A stretch of DNA of 64,000 nt from an uncultured delta proteobacterium (GCA_963708295.1 CAVPSJ010000013.1:96001-160000), one strand, 5' to 3'. Counted from the first letter of the stretch, positions 8,658-40,602 are shown. Notes: generated from the letters alone by a model not told the origin. Program-made: numbers and translations.

Positions 8658-8658
8658 T

Positions 8659-10100: not shown

Positions 10101-10251
10101 CATTGCAAAGTTAGCATTGTGCCTGAACCCGAACACTGTCTGGGAGTTTCTGGTTTCCTGCCTTCTCAGGAATGACACCGTAAGAAATGAATGATTTCAA
10201 TTTAAAGTGCTAAATGCTAATTCTCCAATTTGCAGTGGTTTTTGAGGGAAG

Positions 10252-11298: not shown

Positions 11299-11333
11299 CC
11301 GATGACAGGGGGACGTATACTCTCGACAAGAAG

Positions 11334-11609: not shown

Positions 11610-11721
11610 AATTAAGCCTCCTTCTCTTAATAAATCAAGGAAATCAGTAACATCGAGGGATTGTGAATCTCAAAAATCCTAAATTCCCAAGTCATTCGAC
11701 CTGCCATTGATCTTATTGATT

Positions 11722-11751
11722 TTTTTAACATTCTAGGATAGCGTGTGTCAA
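11722..11751 (-). promoter_or_regulatory. Putative sigma70 promoter for rpsT
   Basis: Minus strand TTGACA-N17/18-(T)TAAAAA with an extended TG. Confidence 0.5.
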
Positions 11752-11844
11752 GGCCTTTTGAAATAACAAATTACACGAATGATAACGAATTTGCCGAATT
11801 TGGGTTTATTCGCTGCATTCGCTGCACTTCGCCTTATTCGAAGT

Positions 11845-13410: not shown

Positions 13411-13470
13411 GAAGGAATACCGAATCAGTTCAAGCCGATTCCCTTTTTTCTATCATCGCGTAAGACTGCA

Positions 13471-14625: not shown

Positions 14626-14764
14626 GTCTGCGGTAAATATTCCCTCATATTTTTCAAATGTTAAGTAGCAACAATTAACGCAAAATGGTGTCAAAAGATA
14701 TCAAGACGCTTCATGAAAAGAACAGAAATATTGAGAGCTTATCACCTCAACGATATTTTCGAAA

Positions 14765-14793
14765 TTGAGTTTCTAGCAAATTCTGTCTATAAT
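14765..14793 (+). promoter_or_regulatory. Sigma70 promoter
   Basis: TTGAGT-N17-TATAAT upstream of the 14848 ORF. Confidence 0.6.
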
Positions 14794-14847
14794 GATTAGA
14801 GATTCAGGGATTGAATTCCATTGGAAAGGCATGGTGATTAGAACGAA

Positions 14848-23840: not shown

Positions 23841-24569
23841 ATGGCTTACTGGGAAAAAGAAATTCGGAGTTTGATGGGGAAGGCGATTCACCGTTACGGT
23901 TTGATCCAGGAGGGGGACCGCATTTTGGTCGGGGTCTCCGGAGGGAAAGATAGCTTAACCCTTATGACACTTCTGTCTGAGCGTGCCAAACGGGTTCCGA
24001 TTCGCTATGAGCTGCTAGCGGTCCATGTCGATCTTGGATTCGAGTCGGGCGGGGCGGACATGCTCAAAGAGTTCTTTGAAGCGAAGAGGATAGCCTATCA
24101 CATTGAGCCCACCCGGATTGCAGAACTGGCCAATGGTCCTGAAAACCGGGAAAATCCGTGTTTTCTCTGCTCGTGGGAGAGAAGAAAGAGGATCTTTTCT
24201 CTGGCGCAACGGTTCGGATGCAACAAGGTGGCCTTTGGGCATCACAAAGACGATATCATTGAGACTCTCCTTCTCAATATCTTCTACAGCGCGGAAATCA
24301 GCACAATGCTGCCCGTTCAATCCCTGTTCAATGGAAAGATCACCCTCATACGACCCTTGGCCTTGTTGGAAGAAAGGAAAATCGAGCGGTTTGCGAAGGA
24401 GATGGGACTTCCTTACTTTCCGTGTGGATGTCCCGCCTCTCGAAGATCAAAGAGAAGAAAGGTAAAGGAATTGATCGGTGCCCTGGAGAAGGAGAATCCC
24501 CGGGTCAAGGGAAACATTTTCCGATCCCTTTCCAATATTAAGCTGGATTATTTGTTGGGGAAAAAATGA
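23841..24569 (+). CDS. ttcA: tRNA 2-thiocytidine biosynthesis protein TtcA family
   Basis: PP-loop SGGKDS, CFLC, GHHKDD..ET and IRPL motifs. Confidence 0.85.
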   Translation: MAYWEKEIRSLMGKAIHRYGLIQEGDRILVGVSGGKDSLTLMTLLSERAKRVPIRYELLAVHVDLGFESGGADMLKEFFEAKRIAYHIEPTRIAELANGPENRENPCFLCSWERRKRIFSLAQRFGCNKVAFGHHKDDIIETLLLNIFYSAEISTMLPVQSLFNGKITLIRPLALLEERKIERFAKEMGLPYFPCGCPASRRSKRRKVKELIGALEKENPRVKGNIFRSLSNIKLDYLLGKK

Positions 24570-24676: not shown

Positions 24677-25396
24677 ATGAATCATAGGGGAGTGAAAACA
24701 GTGGCAGGGGCCTTGTTTTTCATGCTGGTATGGGGGGGAATGGCGGTCGCAAAGGAGACGACAATGGGTGTCATCGTGGTCGATGTCCAGGGAGATTTTA
24801 CAAAATTTAAGAATGGATCCTTGGCGGTAGAGGGAACCGATGAGGCCTACGTGAAGGAGGTAGGGGACCAGACGAAGAAACTGAAGGCGGCAGGTTTTCC
24901 CATCTTCGCAACTCAAGATTGGCATCCTGCCAAACACCTCTCTTTTTTCAGCAATCATCCAGGGAAAAAGGCCTTTGACGTCGTCAAACTTCACGGAAAG
25001 GATCAGGTGCTGTGGCCACCCCACTGCGTTCAAAACACTCCCGGAGCGGAGATCTTGCTGGATAAGAAACTATTCACAGCCACCGTGAAAAAGGGGATGG
25101 ACCCTCAATTTGATAGCTATTCCGGTTTCCAGGACGACGGTGGGAAGAAGACAGATATGGATAAACTCCTCAAGGGCAAGAAGATCAAGACAGTCGTCGT
25201 CTACGGCATAGCTACGGACTATTGTGTAAAGGCGACCGCACTCGATGCAGCTGCCGCAGGATACAAGGTCATTTTCATCAAGAACCTGAGCAGAGGGGTT
25301 GCACCCGATACATCCCAAAAGTCGATTGAGGAGATGAAAGCCAAGGGTGTCGTTGTCTTCGATGACCTCAATCTAGAAAAAATAAAAGCCCTCTAG
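24677..25396 (+). CDS. pncA: Nicotinamidase/pyrazinamidase with a predicted Sec signal peptide
   Basis: VDVQGDF, TQDWHP, WPPHCVQ, SYSGF and GIATDYCV motifs; N-terminal hydrophobic stretch ending AVA|K. Confidence 0.92.
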   Translation: MNHRGVKTVAGALFFMLVWGGMAVAKETTMGVIVVDVQGDFTKFKNGSLAVEGTDEAYVKEVGDQTKKLKAAGFPIFATQDWHPAKHLSFFSNHPGKKAFDVVKLHGKDQVLWPPHCVQNTPGAEILLDKKLFTATVKKGMDPQFDSYSGFQDDGGKKTDMDKLLKGKKIKTVVVYGIATDYCVKATALDAAAAGYKVIFIKNLSRGVAPDTSQKSIEEMKAKGVVVFDDLNLEKIKAL

Positions 25397-25404
25397 CAAA
25401 AGCA

Positions 25405-25953
25405 ATGATAGAGATCGCCGAAAAACTGAAGGCGTTCCGATTGGCAAATCGCATGACGCTCAAGCAGTTGGCGTCTAAGGCGGGATGTACGGACGCTTAT
25501 CTCTCCCAACTGGAAAGAGGCCGCGCCAACCCTTCCATCATGATCTTGAAGAAGATTGCTTCCGCCCTTCAAGTGAAGGTCGTTGATTTCTTCCTTGAGT
25601 CAGAGATCGATGAGAACGATGTGGTCTGTCAAGAAGGGGAGAGGGTCAATATTCGGTTCAAACAAGGGGATGCAAAGATTCAGATGCTTGTCCGGAATAT
25701 CCAAAATAAACGGATGCAACCTTTTTATACGACCATTGAGGCCGGGGGTGGCTCAAAAGGGCCTTACTCCCATATCGGGGAGGAATTTGGGATTGTTCTC
25801 CAGGGGGAACTTAAGGTCAATCTGAATGGGAAACCCTATCGAGTGAAGAAGAACGAAAGTTTTTATTTTTCGTCGCAAGAATCTCACAGCTGGTCCAACC
25901 CGGGTAAAAGAAAGACCGTCGTGATATGGGTCGTCAGTCCTCCCACCTTTTGA
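25405..25953 (+). CDS. XRE-family HTH transcriptional regulator with cupin domain
   Basis: LSQLERG.ANPS HTH and H.GEE cupin motif. Confidence 0.92.
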   Translation: MIEIAEKLKAFRLANRMTLKQLASKAGCTDAYLSQLERGRANPSIMILKKIASALQVKVVDFFLESEIDENDVVCQEGERVNIRFKQGDAKIQMLVRNIQNKRMQPFYTTIEAGGGSKGPYSHIGEEFGIVLQGELKVNLNGKPYRVKKNESFYFSSQESHSWSNPGKRKTVVIWVVSPPTF

Positions 25954-26142
25954 TGGAAGATTAAGGAACAGGGAGGTGGATCCAGCTTTTGGAGGCTTCC
26001 CGACTCTCAATGGGTAAGGGTGACGGTAGTCGCTCGGAAAAACCATAAGAAGCGGAGGAGAGTGAGATTTCTAAATTCATATTCATGGCTGCACCGTTTA
26101 CTGCTGAGCGGTGAGCGATTCAACTCAGAAAGGAGGAGTAAA

Positions 26143-27220
26143 ATGTCTAAGAGAATCACAAAAAAGGAATTCCTGGGAGTTTCGATTATTTGTGTTGTCT
26201 TGTTTCTCGTATTAGGGACAGGCTTGAGTACGCCCCAGGTGGCTTATGGACAGACCACCAATTTGAGATTTAGCACCTGGCACGTTCCCGTGGGTTATGA
26301 GGTCAAAACGGTCTGGGAGCCCATGCTTGAGCAACTGAAGAAGAAGAGCAATGGAAAGATCACATCCACGCATGTTTGCCGGAGGGGCTCTGGGCAAAGG
26401 CCCGGAACATTATGACATTGTGGCGAAAGGTCTCTCGGATATGGGTTACTTTACGGCCACCTGGACGCCCGGCCGCTTTCCTCTCACCGATGTTCTTTCT
26501 CTTGCGGCCTGGGTGGATGGCAAGGACGTTGCCACCGAAATCGGGAATGCGATGTACAAACGGGTCCTCAATCAGGAATTTCCAGGTGTGAAAATGGTGG
26601 AGTTAAACGGATGTATCCAGGCTTTTATGTGGACCAAGAAACCTGTAAAGACCCTTGAGGATGTGAAGGGACTGAAGATTAGGACGCCGGGAGGTCATCA
26701 GACCAATTACATCAAGGCCCTTGGGGCGGAGCCAATCTTCATGCCTCTTGGCGACGTCTATATGGCGATGGAGACGGGGACGATCGATGGGATCGTTACC
26801 TGTCCACCCTTGATCCTGTCTTTTAAACTTCATGAAGTGGCCAAACACGCAGTGGTGACGACCTTCGGTTGTGTTTCCGAAGGGGTCATCATGAACCAGG
26901 AGAGCTGGAAGAAGACCCCTGATGATCTCAAACCGGTGGTCGACGAGGTGTGTCACAATCCTTTCCACACCACAGGAGGATTGACCCGAGACGTCTACAA
27001 AAAGATGATGAAGGAGGTTACGGACAAGAAGGTGGAACTCTATAACCTGCCTGCCAAGGAAGCGGAACGATGGTATGATCGGTTTAGAGATGTGACAAGA
27101 AAATGGGTGGCGGACTTGGAAGGGAAAGGGCTTAAGGCCAAAGAAGTCGTCAGCATGTATAACGAGGAATGCGAGAAGAGAGGCGTAAAAGTGGTTGCCT
27201 TCCCGACAGAGTGGAAATAG
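26143..27220 (+). CDS. dctP: TRAP transporter substrate-binding protein; frameshift near 26371
   Basis: Signal peptide, GGALGK, PGRFPLT, KGLKIRTPG and GTIDG motifs; two overlapping ORFs joined by one extra base. Confidence 0.85.
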
Positions 27221-27305
27221 ACTTCATCTCCTCCAGCTCCTTTTAGCAAAGTGAGGTCGGGAGGGATGAGCAATGGTGAGGATCATAGATTGAGGAGTGA
27301 AGGCC

Positions 27306-27802
27306 ATGGGGTGGATCAAAGCCCAGAAGATAATACATCGTTTAAACTTTTCCGTTGCAGTTGTTGGGATGTCCTTTACTCATTCCGCTGATGTTGCTCA
27401 CCACAGGGGATATCATCGGCAGAAAATTTTTTAGCTAAAACCATCCCCGGGACCTTCGAGATATCCGAATATATCTTGGCAGTCTTCATCCTGCTGGGTG
27501 CCGCCTACACCCAGCAGGTGAAGGGACATGTGGGAGTTGACTTTCTTACCTCCCGGCTATCTCCCCGTGTTCAAATCTGCCTGCGAGATTATTACCACCT
27601 TGCTCAGTTTATTCATTATCGGTATTGTGGTATGGCAGGGCTGGGTAGAGGGGATCGGAGAAAGAGCTGTTTCAGACATGCTGAGAATTCCCCAATATCC
27701 ATTCCGACTCCTCGTTGCAGTCGGAGGTTTTCTTCTATGGCTGGAGCTTCTGATTGACCTCTTGATCTCAATAGGAAAACTCAAAGGGAGGGAAAGTGTG
27801 AA
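27306..27802 (+). CDS. dctQ: TRAP small permease; about 3 frameshifts
   Basis: Reconstructed fragments PG.FEISEY, LGAAYTQQVKGHVGVDF and LRIPQYPF. Confidence 0.7.
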
Positions 27803-29110
27803 TCCCGTCACCGTTGGGATATTGGGCAGTGTCCTGCTCGTTTTCCTTTTATTTCTTGGTATGCCCATCGCTTTTGTTATGATGTTTGTAGGATTTCTGG
27901 GCATTAGTTATTTGGCTTCCGCCAACGCGGCATTGCCCGTTGTGGCTAAAACGGTCTATGAGACTGCTGCCCATTACCCCTACACCATCATCCCTCTCTT
28001 TATCCTGATGGGAGGATTTGCTGGAAACGCAGGGATTACCAGGGAACTTTACCAATCTTTTGATAAATGGTTTAGGAAGACTACCGGGGGGATTGGGTAT
28101 TGCAACCATTGCTGCCTGTGCCTGTTTTGCCGCTTTAAGCGGGTCTTCGGTGGCCGCTGCAGCGGCCATGGGGACAGTTGCTATTCCGGAGATGAGACGC
28201 TTCAATTATGCGCCGAAATTGGCTGTCGGGAATGGTGGCTGCGGGCGGCACCCTCAGCTTTCTCATTCCGCCGAGTCTTGGGTTTCGTCGTCTATGGGAT
28301 GCTCACCGAACAATCGATCGGAAAACTTCTGATTTCCGGCATCTTTCCCGGCCTCCTTCTATCCTTGGCCTTCATGGCATCATCGTCGTTGAGGTAAAAA
28401 TGGATCCGAGTTTGGCCCCAGCGACTCCTGGTGAGGTGAGTCTGGAAGGAGAAGCTCCTGGCCTTTTCAGGAGTGTGGGAGACATTGCTCGTATTTTTCA
28501 TCGTCATGGGCGGAATCTACCTCGGTTTTATCAATCCGACGGAGGCCGGGGCGATCGGCGCGACCGCCCTCTTTCTCATCGCTCTTTTGAAAAGGAAATT
28601 AAGTTTTCGCAATCTTTCTGCCTCGTTACTGGAAGCGGTTCGGATTTCAGTATTAGTTCTTTTTCTTGTGGCAGGGGCAAACGTTTTCAGCTATTTTCTT
28701 GCCCTCTCGACCATCCCGATGGCAGTATCTTCCTGGATGGCAGGGCTTGCGGTCTCCCGATATGTCATCCTCTCTATCATTATCATTATTTATTTGATCC
28801 TGGGCTGTTTCCTGGATGCGATTTCCATGATGGTGTCTGACCATGCCCGTCATCTTTCCTGTCGTTAAGGCATTGGGTTTTGATCCAATCTGGTTCGGGG
28901 TCATCTGCGTGATCATGATGGAGGCAGGGCTCATTACGCCGCCGGTGGGACTCAATGTGTACACCCTTGCCGGAGTCGTCAAAGACGTCCCCATGCAAAC
29001 GATCTTCCGCGGAGCGATGCCTTTTCTGATTGCCATGGTGGTCGTTCGTTTTGATCATCACGATTTTCCCAGAAATTGCCCTTTTCCTTCCCTCCATGAT
29101 GGGAAGGTAG
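27798..29110 (+). CDS. dctM: TRAP large permease; about 7 frameshifts
   Basis: Fragments IIPLFILMG, RLPGGL, SGSSVA.AAAMG..AIPEM, GGTLSFLIPPS, NPTEAGAIG and ITPPVGLNV across alternating frames. Confidence 0.8.
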
Positions 29111-29117
29111 TTTATGA

Positions 29118-29253
29118 AAATCCGAAATCCTAAGTTCGTATTTTGAAGCAGCATCAAAATCCAGATTCACAATTTCAAAACATTTGTGGTTGGGTCATTT
29201 GTATTTTGAACATTCGAACGTGGGTTCGAATTTCATGCTTCGTAATTCGAATT
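29118..29253. repeat. Degenerate CGAAAT-type intergenic palindromic repeat
   Basis: aaatccgaaatcc... ggtcattt...ttcgaatttc.tgcttcg.aattcgaattt. Confidence 0.65.
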
Positions 29254-29299
29254 TATGACTTGAGTGGGATCAAATCATATGGATTGGAAAGGATCTGAG

Positions 29300-30815
29300 A
29301 TGGAAGTGAAGAAACTGAAGAATTACATCAATGGACAGTGGGTGGAATCGAAAACGAAGAAGTGGTTGGAAGTGCAAAAATCCGGCTAAGGACGAGGTCA
29401 TCGCTCTTATCCCGGATACGCCCAAGGAGGAAATCGACCAGACGGTCAAAGCGGCGGAAGATGCGTTCTGGCGTTGGAGAACAACTCCGCCTCCACGGCG
29501 TGCTAAACTTCTTTTCGATTTTCATGAAAAACTCGATAAACATATCGACGAAATCGCTGAGCTGATCGTGAATGAAAATGGGAAAACCTTTGCCGATGGG
29601 AAGGGCGAAATGACGCGGGCCTTGGAGTACGTGGAACACGCCTGTGCCGGGCCGGAGCTGATGAAGGGAAGTCACGCTGAGGACGTTGGAACGGGGGTGG
29701 ATACCCTGTATATCCGCGAACCCCTCGGACCTTTTGTCTTCCTTCCTCCATTTAATTTTCCCGCCATGATCGCTCTCTATTTCGTATGGGCCACTGCTGC
29801 AGGAAATACAGCCATCGTCAAATCAAGTCGTCTCTGTCCGATGACCATCACCCGGATCATCGAGATTGCAGAGGAATGTGGTTTTCCGAAAGGGGTGATC
29901 AACCTTCTGCACGGGTCTGGGAGCGGGGTGGGAGATGCCTTGATTACGCATCCTGGAACAGTGGGGGTCACTTTTGTGGGCTCTTCTAAGGTGGGAGAGC
30001 ATGTTTATAAGGAGGCGATCAATCATGACAAGAGGGCCCAGTGTCAGGGAGGTGCAAAAAACCACGTCCTGATTGCTGAGGACGCAGTGATTGATGAAGT
30101 GATGCAGAACGTCGTCGACTCCTGCTTCGGTCATGTAGGGGAGCGTTGTTTTGCCGTTTCGAACGTATTGGCGGTGGAAAGAATTTATGACAAAGTGAAA
30201 GAGAAATTCATTGAGCTGTCGAAGAGACTGGTACTGGGTTATGGCATGGATAAGGGTGTGACCTTGGGCCCCGTGGTCTCAAGGGATGCTCTGGATAAGA
30301 TTCTGAAAGAAGTGGATCGGGGGATCAAGGATGGAGCAAAACTGATTCTCGACGGAAGAAATCCAAAAGTCGAAAAGTATCCCAAGGGTTACTTTATCGG
30401 GCCAACAGTTTTGGAAGCAGAGCCCGAGATGCGGATCTTTCAGGAAGAGGTCTTTGGTCCTGTTCGGTGCCTTAAGAAAGTGAAGGACCTTGCTGAAGGT
30501 GTCGAGGTCATCAACCGGAGTCCTTACGGTCACACCGCAAATCTTTATACAGAGAACGGCGGTTGGGCCCGAGAGTTTGCCCGTCTGGTTCATGTGGGCC
30601 AGGTGGGGATCAATATTGGGACCCCTGCTCCGATCGCCTACTTTCCCGTGGGAGGGAAGAAGATATCGATGTTTGGAGACATCCGGGGGCGGGCCAATGA
30701 GGCCATTGATTTCTATACGGACAAGAAGGTCGTCATCAGCAGGTGGCATTCGTCCTTTCATGGAGTCGCCAAAAGCCTGGATGATGGGTTTGCAATGAAG
30801 TATGCCAAGAAATAG
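29300..30815 (+). CDS. CoA-acylating aldehyde dehydrogenase, methylmalonate-semialdehyde dehydrogenase-like; one frameshift in an A-run near 29378
   Basis: NYINGQWV, PFNFPAMI, FVGS, QGGAKNH (MMSDH-type, lacking the ELGG Glu), catalytic GERC and EEVFGPV. Confidence 0.88.
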
Positions 30816-30817
30816 TT

Positions 30818-30983
30818 AATTCGAAGTACAAAATCCGAAATTCGAAACAATATCAAATGACAAAAATTCAAAACTCAGAACAGTTTTATCTGCTTAGTCG
30901 AATTTCTAAGAAGTCGTTTTAGAGCGTTTGGTCATTTGAAAATTAGTGTTTGTTTCGGATTTCGATATTCGGATTTCGGATTT
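30818..30983. repeat. CGAAAT-type intergenic palindromic repeat
   Basis: aaatccgaaattcgaaacaatatcaaatgac ... gtcatttga...tgtttcggatttcgatattcggatttcggattt. Confidence 0.85.
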
Positions 30984-31010
30984 GGCGGTGCGACAACTAC
31001 AGTGGGATTG

Positions 31011-31463
31011 ATGGAGATCAAATTTACGCTCAATGGGAAAGTGATTGCGGTGGAGGTTCCCCCGCACTGGACGCTTCTGCGGCTCCTTCGGGAGAAGATC
31101 GGTCTCACCGGCACCAAAGAGGGGTGCGGGATCGGCGAGTGTGGAGCGTGCACCGTATTATTGGATGGAACTCCCGTAAATGCCTGTCTGGTCTTGGCTC
31201 CCAAGGTAGAGGGAAGAGAGGTTGAAACCATAGAAGGTCTTGGAAATCGAGAATCACTTCATCCACTACAGAAATCGTTTATCGACCATGGGGCGATCCA
31301 ATGCGGTTTCTGCACCCCCGGGGTATTGATATCGGCAAAGGCCCTGTTGGAGAAAAATCCAAGCCCTACGAGAGAGGACATCAACGAGGCGATCTCGGGC
31401 CATCTCTGCCGATGTACGGGTTACCATCAGATCATTGAAGCCATAGAAGCACTAAAAGAATAA
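31011..31463 (+). CDS. ndhS: Nicotinate dehydrogenase small [2Fe-2S] subunit (CoxS family)
   Basis: GTKEGC.IGECGAC, QCGFCTPG and LCRCTGY motifs; cluster context. Confidence 0.9.
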   Translation: MEIKFTLNGKVIAVEVPPHWTLLRLLREKIGLTGTKEGCGIGECGACTVLLDGTPVNACLVLAPKVEGREVETIEGLGNRESLHPLQKSFIDHGAIQCGFCTPGVLISAKALLEKNPSPTREDINEAISGHLCRCTGYHQIIEAIEALKE

Positions 31464-31467
31464 GTAG

Positions 31468-31628
31468 AAATGTCAAAGCTCAATATTCAAATGTCAAAGG
31501 AATGTCAAAGTTCAAAATCTTGTAAGTCAACCCTATCAGGGTTAATCGTCGTCGAGGCTGAAATCTCAAATCGCATGATTTGAACTTTGGAATTGATTTG
31601 AACTTTGAAGTTTTGTCACGTGGCATTC
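31468..31628. repeat. AATGTCA/TTTGAAC-type intergenic repeat
   Basis: aaatgtcaaag..aaatgtcaaaggaatgtcaaagttcaaa ... tttgaactttg..tttgaactttg. Confidence 0.7.
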
Positions 31629-31631
31629 TTT

Positions 31632-32498
31632 ATGGTGATTCCTCCCCTTGACTACAAAACTCCAACTACCATTCAAGAAGCGATCGAGCTTCTATCGAAG
31701 GCTGGCGGGAAGGCTAAAATTATTGCGGGAGGAACGGACCTCGTAATCGGGCTTCGGAATGGGGATCAGAAGGCGCAGTGCCTGATCGATATCACAAAGA
31801 TACCTGAGCTTCGGGGAGTTGACGAAAAAAATGGAACGGTTTTTCTCGGAGCTGCAGTCACCCACTCTGAAATTGCTTCTTCTTCCCTGGTGAAAAAATA
31901 CGGGGGAATACTATCCGATGCGGCATCCGAGATCGGTTCTCCACAGATCAGGAACCTCGGGACGATCGGAGGGAATATCGTCAATGCCTCTCCTGCGGCG
32001 GATACCCTTCCTCCGCTGATGGTCTTGAATGCCATGGGCAGGGTGGTATCCAGGGAGGGTGAAAAGGAAGTGCCGCTTTCGGAGCTTTTTAAAGGTCCCT
32101 ATGAGTCAAACTTGAAACCTTACGAACTCCTGGCTCAAATTGCATTTCAAAAGCTTTCCCCCGCCATGAGAAGCGGTTTTATCAGGTTAGCCAGAAGGGG
32201 GGCAATGGCGATTGCAAGGATGAGCGTGGCCGTTGTTCTTAAGATGGAAAGCAAGGAAAGACGTATCGAAGATATCCGCATCGCTGTCGGGTCAGTGACC
32301 CCCACCCCTCAAAGGGTGCCCGAGGCAGAGGTCTTTTTAAAAGGAGAATCGCCTGATGAAGAGGTCCTGCAAAAGGCCTCTCTCAAGATTTCCGAGGCAA
32401 TGATCCGACAAAGCGGGATTCGGCCTTCCACCTCCTATAAAAAGCCAGTGGTAGAGGCTTTGTTCCTCAGAGTGATGAGAAAGGCCCTGGAAGGGTAA
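31632..32498 (+). CDS. ndhF: Nicotinate dehydrogenase FAD subunit (CoxM family)
   Basis: IAGGTDL and IGSPQIRNLGTIGGN..NASPAAD motifs. Confidence 0.9.
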   Translation: MVIPPLDYKTPTTIQEAIELLSKAGGKAKIIAGGTDLVIGLRNGDQKAQCLIDITKIPELRGVDEKNGTVFLGAAVTHSEIASSSLVKKYGGILSDAASEIGSPQIRNLGTIGGNIVNASPAADTLPPLMVLNAMGRVVSREGEKEVPLSELFKGPYESNLKPYELLAQIAFQKLSPAMRSGFIRLARRGAMAIARMSVAVVLKMESKERRIEDIRIAVGSVTPTPQRVPEAEVFLKGESPDEEVLQKASLKISEAMIRQSGIRPSTSYKKPVVEALFLRVMRKALEG

Positions 32499-32500
32499 GC

Positions 32501-34756
32501 ATGAAACAGGTAGGGATTGAGATTCCCAAGGTTGATGTTCTGGAGAAGGCTTTGGGTGAGGCAAAGTACGGAGCAGATTTGCCTTCGAGTAAGCCCCTCC
32601 ACCTGAAAGTCGTCCGAAGCCCGAAGGCCCATGCCCGGGTCGTAAAGGTCGTAACGGATGAGGCGCTCCGCGTACAAGGAGTGGAGCGAGTCTTCACGGC
32701 GAAGGACATTCCAGGGAAGAACCTGATTGGAATTATTACCAAGGATCACCCCGTTCTCGCCTCGGACCGTGTCAGGTTCGTCGGAGACGCCGTTGCCTTG
32801 GTCGTGGCCAGGACAGAGGAGGCAGCCGAAGAAGCAGCCTCTAAGGTGATCGTGACCTACGTGGATCTCCCGGTCATCTCCCGGCCGGAGGAGGCTCTCA
32901 GGCTCGGTGCCCCGTTGATCCATGAAAAGGGGAATCTTTTGCTCGAATTCAACGTGGTGAAGGGTGACGTTCAGGCCGGGTTCAAGGAGGCCGACGTCAT
33001 TGTCGAGGAAACCTACAGCACCACATGGATCGAACACGCTTACCTTGAGCCGGATGCAGGGCTGGCAGACGTGGATGAAGAGGGGCGAGTGGTGGTCACT
33101 TGTCCCACCCAGAATGTCCACTACGATCAAAGAGACGTAGCCACTGTCCTGGGTGTTCCCTTGGAGAAGGTAAGGATCATCCAGTGTGCCACGGGAGGAG
33201 GTTTTGGAGGAAGGCTGGACATTACCGTTCAATGCCTGCTGGCCCTGGCGGCCTTTCAACTCAGGAAGCCCGTCAGGATCGCCTACCCGCGTGAAGAGGT
33301 CTTTCAAGCCACTGCCAAGCGTCACCCCCTGACCATCTCTTACAGGAGTGGCGCCAAAGAAGATGGAAAACTGACCGCCGTTGAGGTTAACATTCTATGC
33401 GACGGAGGGGCCTACGCGTCGTATGGGGTTGCGGTCGCCATCCGCTCTGCCGTGCATGCGACAGGGCCTTATGTCGTTCCTCACGTGAAGGTCAAAAGTC
33501 AGATGGTCTATACGAATAACCCATGGTCCGGTGCGATGAGAGGTTTCGGAGTCCCTCAGATCGCCTTTGCCCACGAATCACAAATGGACCTGCTTGCTCA
33601 GACTCTGAAGATCGACCCCATCGAGATTCGCCTTCGAAACGCTCTGACCACCGGAGCTGAGACAGCCACCGGGCAGACGCTCATGGCGAGCGTTGGGATC
33701 GGCGAGACCTTGAAAAGGATCCGGGAATGGAGAGAGCATCACCCCATCGCTCGTTCCGACCTGGAGAGACCTTACATCAGGAGAGGAGTTGGAGTGGGCT
33801 CGATGTGGTACGGAATCGGGAACACAGGGGTGGCCAATCCTTCGACCGCTCAGGTGGAAATCGATTCAAGCGGCGCCCTTCGACTCTTCACGGGAGCGGC
33901 AGATATAGGCCAGGGATCGGACACGGTCCTGCTTCAGATCGCTTCGGAATCTTTAGGGCTGCCCATCCATGAGATTCATCTCATCCGGGCCGATACTGCT
34001 TTGACCACCGACGCGGGGGCGACCTCAGCGAGTCGCCAGACTTATATCTCTGGAAATGCCATTCTCAGTGCCGTTAAAAATTTGAAACAGGAGGCCATCA
34101 AAGAAGCAAGTCAGCTTTTAAAGATGGATGAAAAGGACCTGTTTTTTGAAGAGGGTAAGGTCAAAGCGAGGACCTGTCTAACCACCTCGATCCCTATACG
34201 GGAGGTGGTTCGAAGAAGCGGTAGGGGACTCCGGGGGGAAGGGCATTTCGATCCGGAAACGACCAAGCTTGATCCAAAAACAGGGCAGGGAGTACCCTAT
34301 GCGACCTTTGCTTTTGCAACCCATCTTGCAGAGGTAGAAGTGGACACAGAGACGGGGAGGGTCAAGGTTCATCGTGTTGTGGCGAGCCACGACGTGGGAA
34401 AAGCGATCAACCCTGGAAATGTAAGGGGCCAGATTACGGGCGGGGTAGCCATGGGGTTGGGGTTTGCTCTGATGGAGGAATTCGTCCCGGGGGAGACCAC
34501 TTCTTTCGTCAATTACCTCATTCCCACATCGAAGGATATTCCCGAGGTTGTTCCCATCCTTGTGGAGGATGCGGAACCGACAGGCCCCTTTGGGGCAAAG
34601 GGAGTGGGAGAACCCGCACTCATACCGACAGCACCAGCGATCTTGAATGCGATTGCAGACGCCATCGGGGAAAGGATCTACCATCTTCCGGCCAACCTGG
34701 AACGGGTGAGGGAGGCAGCGGAGAAGAGTGAGAAACGCAAAGCACATAGCGCATAG
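32501..34756 (+). CDS. ndhL: Nicotinate dehydrogenase molybdopterin subunit (fused L+M)
   Basis: XDH-family motifs HAYLEP, GGGFGG, AMRGFG.PQ and GAKGVGEP; the C-terminal half has GVGSMWYGIGNTG..NP, GAADIGQGS and GATSASRQT, as I recall from E. barkeri NdhM. Confidence 0.88.
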   Translation: MKQVGIEIPKVDVLEKALGEAKYGADLPSSKPLHLKVVRSPKAHARVVKVVTDEALRVQGVERVFTAKDIPGKNLIGIITKDHPVLASDRVRFVGDAVALVVARTEEAAEEAASKVIVTYVDLPVISRPEEALRLGAPLIHEKGNLLLEFNVVKGDVQAGFKEADVIVEETYSTTWIEHAYLEPDAGLADVDEEGRVVVTCPTQNVHYDQRDVATVLGVPLEKVRIIQCATGGGFGGRLDITVQCLLALAAFQLRKPVRIAYPREEVFQATAKRHPLTISYRSGAKEDGKLTAVEVNILCDGGAYASYGVAVAIRSAVHATGPYVVPHVKVKSQMVYTNNPWSGAMRGFGVPQIAFAHESQMDLLAQTLKIDPIEIRLRNALTTGAETATGQTLMASVGIGETLKRIREWREHHPIARSDLERPYIRRGVGVGSMWYGIGNTGVANPSTAQVEIDSSGALRLFTGAADIGQGSDTVLLQIASESLGLPIHEIHLIRADTALTTDAGATSASRQTYISGNAILSAVKNLKQEAIKEASQLLKMDEKDLFFEEGKVKARTCLTTSIPIREVVRRSGRGLRGEGHFDPETTKLDPKTGQGVPYATFAFATHLAEVEVDTETGRVKVHRVVASHDVGKAINPGNVRGQITGGVAMGLGFALMEEFVPGETTSFVNYLIPTSKDIPEVVPILVEDAEPTGPFGAKGVGEPALIPTAPAILNAIADAIGERIYHLPANLERVREAAEKSEKRKAHSA

Positions 34757-34939
34757 CATGAAGAAAAGAAAATGAAAACAGGAGAGCAGAAAGTCCGGGT
34801 CATCCTCTGTGGCCGGCTAGAGCCGGGAGCCCGCGGAGGCCTCCCTTTTGTTAAAGATTTGGCCCAGCTTCAGCTTAGTGACCGCTGCATTGTGTGAATA
34901 CGGTAGCGCCATGCGATTTTAGGTAAATGGAGGAAAGAT

Positions 34940-36103
34940 ATGGCCAAACTGATGATCAAGAATATCGGTGCGATGGTTTCAGGGGATATTTCAAATCCGC
35001 TGTTGAACGCCGACGCCCTAATCATCGAAGGAAGTTTGATTCAAGGTGTGGGGAAAGAGAAAAATTTGGATAGCAAGGGAGTCGATCAGGTCATTGACGT
35101 GCAGGGAATGACGGTGACCCCCGGGTTGATTGATTCCCACTGTCATCCCGTTCTCGGAGATTTTACACCGAGGCAGAAGATGTTGGACTTTATCGAGTCT
35201 TCACTCCACGGGGGGGTGACGACGGTTATTTCGGCTGGGGAGGTCCATCTGCCGGGCAGACCGAAAGATGTTGCGGGAACGAAGGCTCTGGCCATTTTAG
35301 CTGCCAAGTCTTTTTCCAACGCAAGGCCCGGCGGTGTGAAGGTGTTGGGAGGAGCTCTTATCCTTGAGCCTGGCTTGCAGGAGAAGGATTTTGAGGAGCT
35401 GGCCAGAGAAGGCGTGAAGGTGGTTGGGGAGATTGGTTTAGGAGGGGTGAAGAGCCCGAAGGATGCCGCCCCCATGGTCAAATGGGCGAAGAAATGCGGG
35501 ATGGTTGTGATGATGCACACCGGAGGAACCTCCATTCCCGGAAGTACCACCGTTCCCGCCGATGATGTGATCGCCGCTGATCCGGATGTCGTCTCCCATA
35601 TTAATGGAGGCCCCACGGCCATCTCCGTTGCTGAGGCAGAGAAATTAATTCGGAAAACCCCGCTTGCTCTGGAGATTGTTCACTGCGGAAATTCAAAGAT
35701 GATCCTTGATGTGATGAAGATTGTCAAAGAGGTAAAAGCCTATCCAAGGGTCATCATTGGAAATGATGCGCCCTCCGGAACGGGCGTCATTCCTCTTGGA
35801 ATTCTCAGGGTGATCAACTTTTTGGCGTCCCTCTGTGACGTCAAAGCCGAAGAGGCGATTGCCATGGCTACCGGCAATACAGCAAAAGTATATAAGCTCA
35901 ATAGAGGGCGGATAGAAGTTGGTAAGGAAGCTGACCTGGTGATCATGGACGCACCCATGGGATCTGTCGGAAAAGATGCCCTTTCAGCCATCGAAGCAGG
36001 CGACATTCCAGGGATTGCAGGTGTGCTGATCGATGGGATGATGAAAATCGGTGTGAGCAGAAACACGCCCCCACCCCAGCGAAAGATAGTCACCGGTAAA
36101 TAA
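34940..36103 (+). CDS. ena: Enamidase (amidohydrolase family; 1,4,5,6-tetrahydro-6-oxonicotinate hydrolase)
   Basis: IKNIG..VSGDI, PGLIDSHCH, GRPKD.AGTKALAI, MHTGGTSIPGS, SHINGGPT, GNDAPSGTG.IPLG and SRNTPP match the E. barkeri enamidase pattern as recalled. Confidence 0.92.
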   Translation: MAKLMIKNIGAMVSGDISNPLLNADALIIEGSLIQGVGKEKNLDSKGVDQVIDVQGMTVTPGLIDSHCHPVLGDFTPRQKMLDFIESSLHGGVTTVISAGEVHLPGRPKDVAGTKALAILAAKSFSNARPGGVKVLGGALILEPGLQEKDFEELAREGVKVVGEIGLGGVKSPKDAAPMVKWAKKCGMVVMMHTGGTSIPGSTTVPADDVIAADPDVVSHINGGPTAISVAEAEKLIRKTPLALEIVHCGNSKMILDVMKIVKEVKAYPRVIIGNDAPSGTGVIPLGILRVINFLASLCDVKAEEAIAMATGNTAKVYKLNRGRIEVGKEADLVIMDAPMGSVGKDALSAIEAGDIPGIAGVLIDGMMKIGVSRNTPPPQRKIVTGK

Positions 36104-36108
36104 GTGAT

Positions 36109-36213
36109 AAAGTTGAAAATGCCTAAAGTGACTAAAGTTGAAAATGACCGAAGTTCTTAAGACTTCCTTTAGACACTTTAGCTCACTTTAGTTCACTTCA
36201 GTCACTTAAGCTT
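36109..36213. repeat. CTAAAGTGA/TCACTTTAG-type intergenic repeat
   Basis: cctaaagtgactaaagttg ... cactttagctcactttagttcacttcagtcactt. Confidence 0.75.
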
Positions 36214-36242
36214 TTTAACCCAATTTGGGCAACGGGGATTAA

Positions 36243-37799
36243 ATGATGATCGTTGACTGGGAGACTTGTATCGGGTGTGGCTTGTGCGTCGAAGTTTGTC
36301 CTTTGGGAGCTATTTCTCTCGTCGAAGAAGGCAAGAAAAAAGCCTCCATCTCTGATCTCTGCGTCGACTGTCAAGCCTGCGCCAAAGCCTGCCCGAAGGA
36401 GGCTATCGGACCTCCCCCGGAACCAAAAGAAGGAGGCGTGAAGTGTATCTCCTGTCCGATCACCTGTTATATCAAAGCCGGAAGGACAGGAGCCTGTCAA
36501 CGATTTGTCAATCTCGAAGGAGAACTCGTCCGTAAGATTCCCCTTCAGACTTATGAAAACGTCGCAGAGATGGTTGGCGATGATCATGAGGAGGCCATCC
36601 GGAGACCGTTGATCACCGGCATCGGAGCGGGGACCACTTATCCCGATACCAAACCTGCCCCCTATATTGTTCAGTCCAAGTTGAAAGGGATTGATGTGGT
36701 CACCGTCGTCACGGAAGCACCCTTGAGTTACAGCGGCATCAAGGTCAAGGTGGATACGGATCTGCACATGGGCAAGGAGGGGGCACCTGTCCTGATAGGA
36801 AAGAAGAAAGTAGGACACCTCTGCACGGAGGAATACGGGTCCAAGATTCTCTCCTTGGGGGGAGTCAACCTCCTCACTGGAAAAGATGGCATCGCTGTGG
36901 CAAAGCTCATCGTCGATATCGCCAATCGAAGAGAAGTCCGTCTCAAGGTGGACGACGGAGCTGAATTGATTCTTCAAGTAGGCAGGCCTCCTGTCATCGA
37001 TGGTGAAACAGGAAGAAGAATGAGGGTGGGCTGCGGCAGCGCCTCGATGGGTCTTTTCGGTAGATATTTTCTAGGTGCGGCGGATGAAGTGATTGTCCTC
37101 GATGCTCACCTGATCGGACAATTTACCGAGCATGCCGCGGGCAGAGAACTGGGTGCGAAATATAGCGGAATCCATTTGAAAGCGAGACGATCCACTCCGG
37201 GAAGATATTTTGGAGAGCATGGCAGGGGCTGGGGGGGGACGCCGATAGGAGATCCCCTTGAGATCATCAAAGGATTTGACCCGAAGATTGCTATACCCGG
37301 GATGACATTTTTGATCACTGAAACCACAGCGGAAAGAGCAGCGATGTATCGACTGGAAAAGGACGGGAAATTTGAGCAGATCGAATTAACTCCAATGGCC
37401 AAGACGGCTGTGGCCATGATCGCCTCAAACTGCCAGCCATCAAGAGTTTCCGCTGTTTTCATCGGCGGGGGTGGCGGGAGCGCAAGGGCAGGGGTGACCA
37501 AGGTGCCCGTTAGACTCAACCAGGCCATTCATCAAAACCGGGCAAAGTTAACGGTGGGCGGGGCGCCAACCTATATCCTCCCAGGAGGCGGGATTACTTT
37601 TTTGGTCGATGTGGAGAAGGTGATGGTGAGGGCGTTTACTTATGTCCCCACCCCGGCAATGGTTGTTCCCCTCGAATATACAATGAGATTGAAAGAATAT
37701 CTGGAAATAGGTGGCCATAAGGAGAAGATCCGAAGGCTAAAGGATGTCCTGAAGGAGATAGGAGAAAGCTCCAGATCCCGGGCGCCGTTGATGAAATAA
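36243..37799 (+). CDS. hnr: 6-hydroxynicotinate reductase (ferredoxin-dependent Fe-S flavoprotein)
   Basis: N-terminal 2x[4Fe-4S] (CxxCxxCxxxCP twice), C..CP..C....G.C.R, TGIGAGTTYPD.KPAP, VTVVTE, MRVGCGSA, STPGRYF and GGSARAGVT; next to the enamidase. Confidence 0.9.
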   Translation: MMIVDWETCIGCGLCVEVCPLGAISLVEEGKKKASISDLCVDCQACAKACPKEAIGPPPEPKEGGVKCISCPITCYIKAGRTGACQRFVNLEGELVRKIPLQTYENVAEMVGDDHEEAIRRPLITGIGAGTTYPDTKPAPYIVQSKLKGIDVVTVVTEAPLSYSGIKVKVDTDLHMGKEGAPVLIGKKKVGHLCTEEYGSKILSLGGVNLLTGKDGIAVAKLIVDIANRREVRLKVDDGAELILQVGRPPVIDGETGRRMRVGCGSASMGLFGRYFLGAADEVIVLDAHLIGQFTEHAAGRELGAKYSGIHLKARRSTPGRYFGEHGRGWGGTPIGDPLEIIKGFDPKIAIPGMTFLITETTAERAAMYRLEKDGKFEQIELTPMAKTAVAMIASNCQPSRVSAVFIGGGGGSARAGVTKVPVRLNQAIHQNRAKLTVGGAPTYILPGGGITFLVDVEKVMVRAFTYVPTPAMVVPLEYTMRLKEYLEIGGHKEKIRRLKDVLKEIGESSRSRAPLMK

Positions 37800-37915
37800 T
37801 TCCAAGTAACCCATAACCAAATTCAAATTAGTCGTTTCACTTATTGAGTTTGGAAATTGGTTTTTGCTGATTGGAGCTAAGGTGGGGTTTGGAGTTTTGT
37901 TAGTGGAATTTATCG

Positions 37916-38797
37916 ATGACGATGCAGGCGGCACAAAGGATTCATCGCACGAATTGTATTCAGACCCTGTCGAACGGAGTTGTCCTGGTCGACTATGGTC
38001 CCATGCATATGTTTATCAGTGCCTCTGAAAATGCAAGACCTCTTGTGGAATTGGCGAAAGAGGGGGCCCATTTCGCCATGGAGGTTCTCGCAGATTTGGC
38101 AAGATTTCTTCCGGTGATCAAGAAAAAAGCGTGGAAGCTTGGGGTTGGGGAGACATACCCGGATGTTGTTCGAAGGATGATCGAAGCGACGAGAAGAATG
38201 GAGGAGCCGGATCTAACTCCCCTCGCTGCTGTTGCTGGAACGGCCTCTGACGTGGTTGCCGATTTCATCTTCCGCAAAGGTGGGACCAAGATCATTGTGG
38301 ATAACGGAGGGGACATTGCGATCCGTTTGAGAGAAGGGGAGGTGGCAAAGGTAGGGGTGAAAACAGAGATTGATGCAGACCAACCGACTTACCTCATTTC
38401 GATCGATTCTACTATGGGAATAGGGGGAGTGGCGACAAGCGGTCTTGGAGGAAGGAGTCTTACCAAAGGAATTGCTTCAGCCGCAACCGTCCTCTCTCCG
38501 ACGGCCGCGGTGTCGGATTCGGCGGCTACGGTGATTGGAAACTTTACCCATGTCGAAGATGCGAATATCGTGAAGTCTCTGGCAGAAAAAATCCAGCCTG
38601 ATACCGATATTGCAGGGGAGTGGGTCACCGTCGAAGTTGGAAGCTTATCTCAGGATAAGATTGAGGAGGCGTTGAAGAACGGTCTGTCGAAGGCGGTCTC
38701 GATTTGCGAGAAGGGATGGATCACCGGAGCCTTGATTGCCATACAAGGCAAAGTGGCCTGGACGGATTCTTTGAATTCTTGGTTGACGAAATTATAA
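37916..38797 (+). CDS. UPF0280 / ApbE-superfamily protein
   Basis: TPLAAVAG..SD, DNGGDIA, GVATSG.GGRSLTKGIA and D.AATVIGN motifs. Confidence 0.85.
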   Translation: MTMQAAQRIHRTNCIQTLSNGVVLVDYGPMHMFISASENARPLVELAKEGAHFAMEVLADLARFLPVIKKKAWKLGVGETYPDVVRRMIEATRRMEEPDLTPLAAVAGTASDVVADFIFRKGGTKIIVDNGGDIAIRLREGEVAKVGVKTEIDADQPTYLISIDSTMGIGGVATSGLGGRSLTKGIASAATVLSPTAAVSDSAATVIGNFTHVEDANIVKSLAEKIQPDTDIAGEWVTVEVGSLSQDKIEEALKNGLSKAVSICEKGWITGALIAIQGKVAWTDSLNSWLTKL

Positions 38798-38872
38798 AAC
38801 ACAAAATGAAATTTCCCTTACCATCCCCTCTCCTCGGGGGGAGGGATAGAGTGAGGGACCGGAGGTGAAAAC

Positions 38873-39451
38873 ATGGAAGTCAGAAAATACGTCATCATTG
38901 TTGAAGAGACCGCGATCGAAGGAGGAAAGAAGGTCGATCCGCCAACTCGCAAAGCTGCTGCCATCGCAGTGATAAAGAATCCCTTCGCGGGGAAATATGT
39001 GGAGAAACTGGATGAACTTGTCGATGTCGGCGAAGTGTTAGGGGGAATCCTTGGGAAGAAGGCTGTCGAGGCGTTGAAGATACCGCCTAAAGATGCTGAG
39101 AGTTATGGGAAGGCAGCCATCGTAGGAGCGGAGGGTGAGCTGGAGCATGCGGCAGCCATCTTACATCCCAAATTAGGAACTCCCTTGAGGGAAGCCGTCG
39201 GTGGAGGAAAAGCGATTATCCCTTCCGCGAAAAAGATGGGAGGTCCCGGAACAGAAATTGACGTCCCTGTCCATTACAAGGATGCAGCATTTGTCCGCTC
39301 TCACTTTGATGCCATGGCTGTGAGAGTCCCGGATGCACCCAGATCCGATGAAATCCTGGTTGTGGTCGTCGTCACGGATTCAGGCAGACCTCATCCTCGA
39401 ATCGGCGGCTTGAAGAAGGAAGAAGCGAAAAAAGAGGACGGGCTGAGATAA
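38873..39451 (+). CDS. 'Amino acid synthesis' family protein (DUF1185)
   Basis: AVIKNPFAGKYV, ESYGKAAIVG..GELEH.AA, RSHFDA, DAPR.DEI and GRPH.RIGG motifs. Confidence 0.88.
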   Translation: MEVRKYVIIVEETAIEGGKKVDPPTRKAAAIAVIKNPFAGKYVEKLDELVDVGEVLGGILGKKAVEALKIPPKDAESYGKAAIVGAEGELEHAAAILHPKLGTPLREAVGGGKAIIPSAKKMGGPGTEIDVPVHYKDAAFVRSHFDAMAVRVPDAPRSDEILVVVVVTDSGRPHPRIGGLKKEEAKKEDGLR

Positions 39452-39531: not shown

Positions 39532-40602
39532 TTAGATTTTTCGAATCAGATCTTCGATAGCGGCTGAGTTGAGGCCCTTGAGAAAGAGGAAAAGCAACTC
39601 GGCCGTTTTCTCCACATCGGGCCATTTTACCAATTCTGCGGGCGAATGGCTATACCGGCGGGGGATATAGAGTCCGCCGCACGGGATGCCCTTACCCGAG
39701 GTGTGAATGGTGGCGGCATCCGTCCACGTCTTGGCCACATCCTTCTGGTGGGGTATCCCGCTCTTTTCCGCAGTGGTCAGCAGTCTCTTCCGAATCTTCT
39801 TTGAATAGATCGTCCCCCACCCCAAGGCATTGACGTCTACGGACCGGATGATCGGTCCCTTGCCGCATTCAGCGGTGGCTTGTTGAGGCGGGGTGATCGG
39901 ATCGGAGGCCGGAACCGTGTCGACCACGATGGCCATATCCGGTTCGAGTGCTTGGGCGGCCACCTTGGCTCCTCTTGATCCAATCTCTTCCTGGACGGCG
40001 GCAACCAAATAGAGCTGATAGTCTATCTTCTTTGATTTCATTTTCTCCGCCAAATCGATGAGAATGGTGCAGCCCGCGCGGTTATCAATCGCTTTGCTGA
40101 TGATGGACTCTTTGCCAATTTTTTGGAAATTGGGATGAAAGACGATAGGATCTCCGATTTCGATACCCCACCGCCTAACATCATCCTCACTCCCGGCGCC
40201 CACGTCGATCCACAGATCCGAAACGCTGATTGGACGTTTGAGGTCTTCCGGCGTCAAAAGGTGTCGATTTTTCACTCCCACCACACCCGTCAGAATTCCT
40301 CTGTCTGTGCAGAGGTCCACCTTGGTGCTGAGAAGGGCCCTTTCGTCGATTATGCCGTTGAGCTCAAAATAGATAAACCCTTTCGGATCGATATATTTGA
40401 CCAGCAGTCCCACTTCGTCGGAATGGACGCAAACCATGACTGATTTTTTGCCCTTCCCGAGTTTTCCGATGACATTTCCCATCGGATCTACGGAGACATC
40501 CGGGAGTCTTCCCTTCAATTCCGTGGCGATAAACTCGATCACCTCTTCTTCAAAACCACTTCCTCCGGGGATTTGAGCAAGCTTTTCAAAATTTTTGAGC
40601 AT
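39532..40602 (-). CDS. M42-family metallopeptidase
   Basis: HSDEVG, KAIDNRAG, VQEEIG.RGA and YSHS metal-ligand motifs. Confidence 0.9.
   Translation of the reverse strand: MLKNFEKLAQIPGGSGFEEEVIEFIATELKGRLPDVSVDPMGNVIGKLGKGKKSVMVCVHSDEVGLLVKYIDPKGFIYFELNGIIDERALLSTKVDLCTDRGILTGVVGVKNRHLLTPEDLKRPISVSDLWIDVGAGSEDDVRRWGIEIGDPIVFHPNFQKIGKESIISKAIDNRAGCTILIDLAEKMKSKKIDYQLYLVAAVQEEIGSRGAKVAAQALEPDMAIVVDTVPASDPITPPQQATAECGKGPIIRSVDVNALGWGTIYSKKIRKRLLTTAEKSGIPHQKDVAKTWTDAATIHTSGKGIPCGGLYIPRRYSHSPAELVKWPDVEKTAELLFLFLKGLNSAAIEDLIRKI

Follow-up and report, generated by a model that had tools for sequence, protein, structure and literature searches.

The DNA analysed here is a stretch of 64,000 nucleotides (hereafter the window; GCA_963708295.1 CAVPSJ010000013.1:96001-160000, or G000:C13:96001-160000 in our numbering of genomes and contigs) from an uncultured delta proteobacterium, whose genome assembly (G000) comprises 4.95 Mb in twenty contigs and is 91 % complete. 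Between positions 24677 and 39451 it carries a gene cluster predicted to function in the breakdown of nicotinamide and nicotinate, and this cluster includes an aldehyde dehydrogenase (ALDH) resembling methylmalonate semialdehyde dehydrogenase (MMSDH), the role of which is the main subject of this work (Table 1). Open reading frame (ORF) calling placed every gene of the cluster on the plus strand, with short gaps between the genes. The co-directional block from pncA to the DUF1185 gene, previously described from the sequence alone, was recovered with all of its genes present at the stated coordinates on the basis of ORFs and of family and structure matches, which confirm the gene list.

Table 1. 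Genes of the nicotinate cluster and the single-base insertions and deletions within it (window coordinates)
Feature	Position	Strand	Basis or remark
pncA, nicotinamidase (nicotinamide to nicotinate and NH3)	24677..25396	+	NF008623, 175.6 bits (cut-off 174); isochorismatase fold
XRE-family helix-turn-helix and cupin regulator	25405..25953	+	HTH_3, Cupin_2
dctP, solute-binding protein of tripartite ATP-independent periplasmic (TRAP) transporter	26143..27220	+	tblastn with intact L009 protein
dctQ, TRAP small membrane protein	27306..27797	+	tblastn with intact relatives
dctM, TRAP large membrane protein	27798..29110	+	tblastn with intact relatives
Clade A MMSDH-like CoA-acylating ALDH (predicted)	29300..30815	+	TIGR01722; frameshifted; ORF 29331-30815
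ndhS, 2Fe-2S subunit of molybdenum hydroxylase	30936..31463	+	Fer2_2, Fer2
ndhF, FAD subunit	31605..32498	+	FAD_binding_5, CO_deh_flav_C
ndhLM, unsplit molybdopterin subunit of nicotinate dehydrogenase	32501..34756	+	3hrd_A, 3hrd_B
ena, enamidase (1,4,5,6-tetrahydro-6-oxonicotinate (THON) to 2-formylglutarate and NH3)	34940..36103	+	2vun
hnr, 6-hydroxynicotinate reductase with N-terminal 2x[4Fe-4S] ferredoxin domain	36243..37799	+	annotated homologs
UPF0280, distant ApbE-like protein	37916..38797	+	NF003322; 2o34
DUF1185 / AA_synth protein	38873..39451	+	PF06684 at 1.7e-74; 2qtp, 3byq (both uncharacterised)
One-base insertion in dctP	~26370		
One-base insertions in dctQ	~27379, ~27434, ~27577		
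One-base insertions in dctM	~28077, 28228, 28280, 28442, 28835, 29047		
Deletion in dctM	28378		
One-base insertion in ALDH gene	~29374		cuts first ~25 codons off ORF 29331-30815

The predicted enamidase (Ena) matches the enamidase of Eubacterium barkeri (2vun) over its full length (residues 1-381; 6.8e-143). The best solved relatives of the 751-amino acid NdhLM protein are the L and M chains of the E. barkeri nicotinate dehydrogenase, with 3hrd_A aligned on residues 8-409 (1.5e-118) and 3hrd_B on residues 427-740 (1.5e-84), and a single chain covers both, in agreement with the fused ndhLM of the sequence-only reading. The division into NdhL and NdhM in E. barkeri is reportedly an exception to the unsplit norm of the xanthine dehydrogenase family. 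Hnr (518 amino acids), which was compared with annotated homologs rather than with the E. barkeri protein, shares 45 % identity with a plasmid-encoded protein annotated as 6-hydroxynicotinate reductase, a name also borne by its close relatives at NCBI and JGI. The upper pathway of the E. barkeri type (Ndh, Hnr and Ena) is represented by full-length close homologs that are clustered together, and the strong homology to characterised enzymes of E. barkeri suggests that the NdhSF-LM, Hnr and enamidase steps are those of nicotinate degradation.

The substrate of the hydroxylase is assigned by homology, with 4-hydroxybenzoyl-CoA reductase a close second to 3hrd among the matches of NdhLM (9e-110), and the family model scan of the hydroxylase gave no score for an NCBIfam equivalog of this enzyme's nicotinate type. 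The cluster may degrade a different N-heterocyclic acid through the same chemistry, in which the acid is hydroxylated, its ring reduced and then opened by an amidohydrolase, and the aldehyde taken by the ALDH would then not be 2-formylglutarate; separate loci that pair ena and a DUF1185 gene with a distant hydroxylase, and that lack hnr, are compatible with this. We nevertheless regard another substrate as quite improbable, considering the very close, full-length relationship of the enamidase to a characterised enzyme and the presence of a nicotinamidase gene in the cluster. Of the 67 genomes with enamidase in the phylum sample described below, 14 likewise have a homolog of pncA at a distance of up to ~10 kb from ena. 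It often adjoins ena or the ALDH gene and, in the cluster of genome G352, is situated between ndhLM and ena. As pncA was found in none of the 31 loci most closely related to the window, the nicotinamide link appears to be recurrent, not universal.

The ALDH had been described as a CoA-acylating enzyme of the MMSDH type on account of a GGAKNH motif lacking the Glu of ELGG, and its assignment to the MMSDH type was borne out. TIGR01722 (MMSDH; AlDH6, cd07085; cut-off 448.5 bits) is its best family, with 448.0 bits for the window ORF, which is missing the first ~25 residues, and 466.5 bits for an intact ortholog in a related locus (L003). Its top solved relatives are all MMSDHs (1t90 at 2.2e-123), and the motifs read from the window are CQGGAKNH, without the ELGG Glu, and GERC at the catalytic site. 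Phylogenetic analysis, with an ordinary Glu-bearing ALDH used to root the tree for drawing, distinguished three well-supported clades (Shimodaira-Hasegawa-like approximate likelihood ratio test values of 100, 100 and 99 for clades A, B and C, respectively) that branch as a trichotomy; an initial grouping of clades A and B as monophyletic was thus dropped. The window ALDH belongs to clade A. Clades A and B share 36-42 % amino acid identity with each other and with clade C, and in the phylum sample described below clade C was 41-47 % identical to clade A. The clade B proteins score 340-376 bits with TIGR01722, under the cut-off, with MMSDH as the sole family matched at E<=1e-90.

An alignment of twenty-five sequences (nine of clade A, ten of clade B and six of clade C), with positions mapped via 1t90, revealed four residues that do not vary in any of the three clades, namely the catalytic Cys, the Asn of the oxyanion site and the counterparts of 1T90 residues Arg107 and Arg283. 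The oxyanion Asn is located in a PFNFP motif in clade A and PGNIP in clade B, the other two motifs of clade B read NGNGKNH and GQRC, and the position of the catalytic Glu (L250 of 1T90) is occupied by Q (clade A) or N (clade B). Two further positions (413 and 466 of the L003 protein) hold His and Arg, respectively, in clades A and B, the corresponding residues of clade C being Asn and His. According to a review of the superfamily that covers AlDH6 (PMC12041015), Cys284 and Asn153 are kept in these enzymes (1T90 numbering) and the catalytic Glu is replaced (L250), while Arg107 and Arg283 bind the carboxylate of the substrate and are proposed to aid the release of bicarbonate prior to CoA transfer. 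The review also states that AlDH6 enzymes take aldehydes that carry no carboxylate, propionaldehyde among them.

The association of this ALDH with the nicotinate genes was followed in genomes of increasing distance. A contig scan with a single enamidase protein, which reaches close relatives only, identified thirty-one related genome loci, twenty-two of which incorporate an ALDH within the cluster. Fourteen of these belong to clade A, with 77-90 % identity to the window ALDH, and eight to clade B (36-39 %), the latter being located between dctM and ndhS or elsewhere in the cluster. Eight of the nine loci without an ALDH end at a contig edge upstream of the ndh genes. The XRE-cupin regulator is kept at the head of the cluster across the related loci. 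In a wider sample of 401 genomes of the Thermodesulfobacteriota, the phylum of the window, enamidase was found in 67 genomes belonging to 41 of the 254 genera. Using cut-off values of at least 57 % identity to the L003 protein for clade A and to the L004 protein for clade B, clade A was observed in sixteen genomes and clade B in forty-eight, with no genome containing both. One or the other is present in 63/67 enamidase-positive genomes, a count that includes G352, where a clade B fragment lies at the end of the contig bearing the nicotinate cluster, as opposed to 2/334 enamidase-negative genomes (one per clade; G270 and G308, which are 85 % and 81 % complete, respectively). Clade C occurs both with and without enamidase. 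Comparison of coordinates by hand placed the ALDH within ~10 kb of ena on the same contig in 47/67 genomes; in sixteen it is on another contig, and many such contigs end near ena. Scanning of metagenomes with an alignment of enamidases yielded a further eighty loci. In eleven of these an ALDH of clade A or B is present, and all eleven share one synteny and a Thermodesulfobacteriota-like gene set. Fifteen others show a proteobacterial layout with two copies of DUF1185, UPF0280, hnr and the hydroxylase, without an MMSDH-like gene in any of them. In a group of high-GC loci, which lack hnr, ena and DUF1185 are accompanied by a distant hydroxylase.

The conserved linkage and the co-occurrence, both put forward as tests in the sequence-only reading, establish at the level of gene organisation that the ALDH belongs to the nicotinate pathway. 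The best family and structural matches of the enzyme are MMSDHs, and on these grounds it could serve the catabolism of valine, beta-alanine or inositol as an ordinary dehydrogenase of methylmalonate or malonate semialdehyde, its place beside the nicotinate genes being fortuitous. This is highly improbable, considering that clades A and B are nearly confined to enamidase-positive genomes, where they usually lie inside the cluster, and that clade C, which is independent of enamidase, is the likelier housekeeping form. The functional link of the ALDH to the cluster is well supported, and its reaction is a proposed one. We give a little better than even chances to the proposal that the operon-like cluster serves the anaerobic use of nicotinate, and of nicotinamide via PncA, with the MMSDH-like ALDH producing glutaryl-CoA from 2-formylglutarate. 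The acid would be taken up by the TRAP transporter and hydroxylated by the molybdenum hydroxylase NdhSF-LM to 6-hydroxynicotinate, which Hnr would reduce to THON, and ring opening by the enamidase would release 2-formylglutarate and ammonia. The ALDH would then oxidise the formyl group of 2-formylglutarate on its catalytic Cys, as MMSDH does with methylmalonate semialdehyde; the beta-carboxyl group would be lost as CO2 or bicarbonate with the aid of the two Arg residues, and the glutaryl group would be passed to CoA. The glutaryl-CoA may finally enter the glutaryl-CoA dehydrogenase and beta-oxidation route of the host. Replacement of the methyl group of methylmalonate semialdehyde with a carboxyethyl group gives 2-formylglutarate, and MMSDH chemistry, if carried over to this substrate by analogy, would thus yield glutaryl-CoA and CO2.

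A second order of events leads to the same end product and constitutes the main rival. The CO2 may be lost before the ALDH acts, either spontaneously or through another protein, and the enzyme would then convert glutarate semialdehyde to glutaryl-CoA without decarboxylation, in an anaerobic, CoA-conserving variant of the Azorhizobium route. In Azorhizobium, decarboxylation is said to precede oxidation. PMC3511419 describes nicotinate catabolism via THON and glutarate in this organism, the AlDH6 enzymes accept carboxylate-free aldehydes as noted above, and the linkage data fit this order equally well. Clades A and B, on the other hand, keep both Arg residues for binding of the beta-carboxylate and the proposed bicarbonate release, and the ALDH-bearing clusters have no candidate for a decarboxylase that is theirs alone, since both DUF1185 and UPF0280 are found also in a cluster with a B12-type ending (L085, below), where decarboxylation is not expected. 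On balance, prior decarboxylation appears unlikely, and 2-formylglutarate, rather than its decarboxylation product, is the predicted substrate of the ALDH, with glutaryl-CoA as the predicted product.

In E. barkeri, the route is reportedly made up of Ndh, Hnr and Ena, followed by Hgd, Hmd, the B12-dependent Mgm, Mii, DmdAB and Dml. The families of this lower pathway are absent from the cluster, as previously noted from its sequence, and queries for Mii, Hmd and Mgm revealed none elsewhere in the source genome. PrpF (PF04303) and SDH_alpha (PF03313), the presumed Pfam families of Mii and of the serine dehydratase-like Hmd, respectively, had no match in the 91 % complete assembly, and an Mgm-like query from L085 matched only small B12-binding domain proteins. 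L085 (positions 1-15596), a metagenome contig of 32.6 % GC, served as the reference for the B12-type ending, E. barkeri itself not being among the loci reached. It encodes a 591-amino acid protein that ends in a B12-binding domain, a member of the PrpF family and MutL, along with Hnr, UPF0280, Ena and DUF1185. This contig represents a B12-type ending as in E. barkeri, supports the placement of Mii in PrpF, and lacks the ALDH. A Cache-domain chemoreceptor gene is inserted between its UPF0280 and ena genes.

A glutaryl-CoA dehydrogenase, which the sequence-only reading had suggested looking for elsewhere in the genome, was located at G000:C16:49194-50357 and is of the canonical GcdH type (3sf6 at 4e-123). 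It adjoins an ordinary ALDH that keeps the Glu, and an ORF combining response-regulator receiver and LpxC deacetylase domains (L053:9199-10629, on the same contig) is situated between the two. The ALDH-GcdH pair also occurs in genomes G246, G024, G065 and G101. The first ten acyl-CoA dehydrogenases (ACADs) of the source genome, which were scanned as candidates, are not of the glutaryl-CoA dehydrogenase type, and that of L044 is a generic ACAD. Genes resembling the Acd-type glutaryl-CoA dehydrogenase (E<=1e-120) were found in 62/67 enamidase-positive genomes, in twenty-four of these over the curated cut-off, and in 103/334 others. In G352 (L156; G352:C30:1770-6230), genes for an Acd-like ACAD, a short-chain dehydrogenase/reductase, a Zn-dehydrogenase and an enoyl-CoA hydratase/crotonase converge on the nicotinate cluster. 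The capacity for glutaryl-CoA use is thus general in the enamidase-positive genomes, without being specific to them.

The transporter and the 5' end of the ALDH gene are disrupted in the assembly. Aligned against the related sequences L002, L009 and L004, the window shows fourteen frame-breaking single-base indels between 26370 and 29374, comprising thirteen insertions and one deletion, with none in 29400-39451. These affect dctP, dctQ, dctM (twelve insertions and the deletion, 26370-29047, to which the sequence-only reading did not refer) and the 5'-terminal ~25 codons of the ALDH gene, where the frameshift mentioned in that reading is present as a one-base insertion; the 10 kb that follow are clean. 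A tblastn search with the L009 protein showed dctP to be split in two frames (26143-26403 and 26321-27217). The concentration of these indels could indicate that the transporter and ALDH genes are decaying pseudogenes and that the pathway is non-functional in this organism. However, the indels are almost exclusively single-base insertions, with no longer ones among them, and the amino acid identity to relatives is as high in the frameshifted genes as in the intact ones. Other genes of the twenty-contig assembly are also split, including the ACADs at C7:155543-156697 and C17:149045-150166. Further evidence was provided by four public wetland sequencing runs, which contain at most 0.19 of the sampled words and the contigs of which represent relatives 90-99 % like the window. 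In these short-read contigs, the base is missing or restored at ten of the fourteen indel sites, including the extra bases of dctQ at 27433 and 27577 and each of the indels listed for dctM, and one related contig of 101 bases differs from the window at a single point, the extra base at 28836/7; informative contig cover was absent at sites 26370, 27379 and 29374. The near-exclusive +1 insertions, the normal identity and the other split genes therefore favour assembly error over decay as the likely cause, and a decaying, non-functional pathway has only a slight probability. The indel-rich segment is probably a region of locally poor consensus, perhaps at differences between co-assembled strains.

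UPF0280 and DUF1185 were considered as potential contributors to the upper pathway. Against the ApbE family (PF02424; cut-off 25.6 bits), the window UPF0280 protein scored 16.3 bits (E 0.007) and its L027 counterpart 18.8, with an ortholog in L029 (L029:12712-13704) reaching 30.2, and the PDB profile search reached 6nxj only at E 0.5. Wherever it is found, in related, plasmid and metagenome loci, the UPF0280 gene adjoins hnr. The Hnr of E. barkeri reportedly carries a covalent flavin, and in combination with the weak ApbE matches and the constant adjacency to hnr, this suggests that UPF0280 may be the flavin transferase for Hnr. DUF1185 is linked to ena in every type of cluster seen and is the gene most tightly tied to it. 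It also occurs beside ena in the high-GC loci (L097-L116) and on a Thermomicrobium plasmid (L035), all of which have neither hnr nor UPF0280 and contain a hydroxylase of only ~30 % identity. The idea that DUF1185 decarboxylates 2-formylglutarate as a component peculiar to the glutaryl route was rejected on account of its presence in the B12-type cluster of L085. As UPF0280 and DUF1185 are shared by the ALDH-bearing, proteobacterial and B12-type clusters, they can be assigned to the shared upper pathway, with the ALDH marking a distinct ending. We propose, more tentatively and at somewhat less than even chances, that the clade A and B enzymes are dedicated decarboxylating, CoA-acylating 2-formylglutarate dehydrogenases forming part of a B12-independent route that would be the main one for anaerobic nicotinate and nicotinamide degradation in the Thermodesulfobacteriota (~1/6 of the sampled genomes), that UPF0280 matures Hnr as a flavin transferase and that DUF1185 is a partner of the enamidase.

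Several observations weigh against the production of glutaryl-CoA from 2-formylglutarate by these enzymes, or lessen the force of the evidence for it. The ALDH sequence fits 2-formylglutarate and glutarate semialdehyde alike, a CoA-acylating enzyme giving the same product from either, and the invariance of the Arg pair in clade C implies a pocket for aldehydes of the beta-carboxy type rather than specificity for 2-formylglutarate. Both the ALDH and the transporter genes are frameshifted in the assembly at hand. The ALDH is lacking in locus L019, where dctM leads directly to ndhS, and the clade B gene of family f17 genomes lies on a separate contig among unrelated neighbours, a separation that seems real. 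Conversely, the cluster on G246:C62 (L154, 7312-18556) is without ena, hnr and UPF0280, though a clade A ALDH is present. The co-occurrence counts cover ~20 families, and as kin are not independent, fewer independent events lie behind them than the figures imply. Of the 67 enamidase-positive genomes, only eight contain canonical GcdH, no protein of the source genome scores over the cut-off of the Acd-type (Desulfococcus-type) model (best 314 bits versus 470), and Acd-like genes are so common in the phylum (165/401 genomes) that they add little specificity. An anti-correlation of the ALDH with the B12 route, as had been anticipated, holds only in part. Mii-like genes, which are never located on the ena contig, are present in three of the four enamidase-positive genomes without a clade A or B enzyme, as anticipated, but eight of the eleven carriers among the 67 genomes also contain clade A or B.

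The G246:C62 cluster itself comprises xre, the clade A ALDH, ndhS, ndhF, ndhLM and a truncated DUF1185 gene, in a genome belonging to the same genus; a second cluster of this genome, on another contig (L155), is complete and more divergent, and lacks UPF0280. A PP-loop ATPase gene upstream (23841-24569) and an M42 peptidase gene downstream (39532-40602, opposite strand) flank the cluster of the window, as they do in many related loci. In L027, the cluster is followed by genes for YqeC and a MobA-like nucleotidyltransferase (L027:13717-15201). Such genes are accessory to selenium-dependent molybdenum hydroxylases, and their position would fit the selenium-containing nicotinate dehydrogenase of E. 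barkeri.

The upper pathway, its spread to the Proteobacteria and a biochemical ending via glutarate are already known, and sulfate reducers have long been known to grow on nicotinate. For strict anaerobes other than E. barkeri, genes have thus far not been assigned to the ending of nicotinate breakdown, and a literature search that covered only a minority of subscription journals found no paper assigning an MMSDH-like enzyme to 2-formylglutarate. One conserved enzyme would join ring opening to the glutaryl-CoA route already used for aromatic and dicarboxylic acids. If the proposal is correct, this ending requires no vitamin B12 and saves a thioester, a new class of substrate is added to the AlDH6 family, and ena together with a clade A or B ALDH gene constitutes a pair of markers by which the turnover of vitamin B3 could be followed in anoxic sediments and wetlands. 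Candidate functions are also obtained for two widespread families, UPF0280 and DUF1185.

The cluster can be compared with three known systems. It shares with E. barkeri the first three enzymes, Ndh (3hrd), Hnr and Ena (2vun), but NdhL and NdhM, which are separate in that organism, form one polypeptide here, and an MMSDH-like ALDH takes the place of the lower-pathway families. The Azorhizobium route, known from Azorhizobium caulinodans and the Bradyrhizobiaceae, reportedly proceeds through free glutarate and a CoA transferase, and it uses an ABC (ATP-binding cassette) transporter rather than a TRAP transporter. Proteobacterial plasmid clusters of this type resemble the window in containing hnr, UPF0280, ena, a molybdenum hydroxylase and DUF1185, in two copies. 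They differ in their lack of the enzyme in question, with no ALDH in two plasmid loci bearing hnr and no MMSDH type in the fifteen metagenome loci with two DUF1185 genes. With the MMSDHs (AlDH6; IolA/MmsA; 1T90), the window ALDH has the fold, the catalytic Cys, the Asn and the two Arg residues in common, as well as the loss of the hydrolytic Glu, and CoA-acylating chemistry with beta-decarboxylation, as described in PMC12041015, would be expected of it. Clades A and B are nevertheless set apart from these enzymes by their ties to enamidase, rather than to valine or inositol genes.

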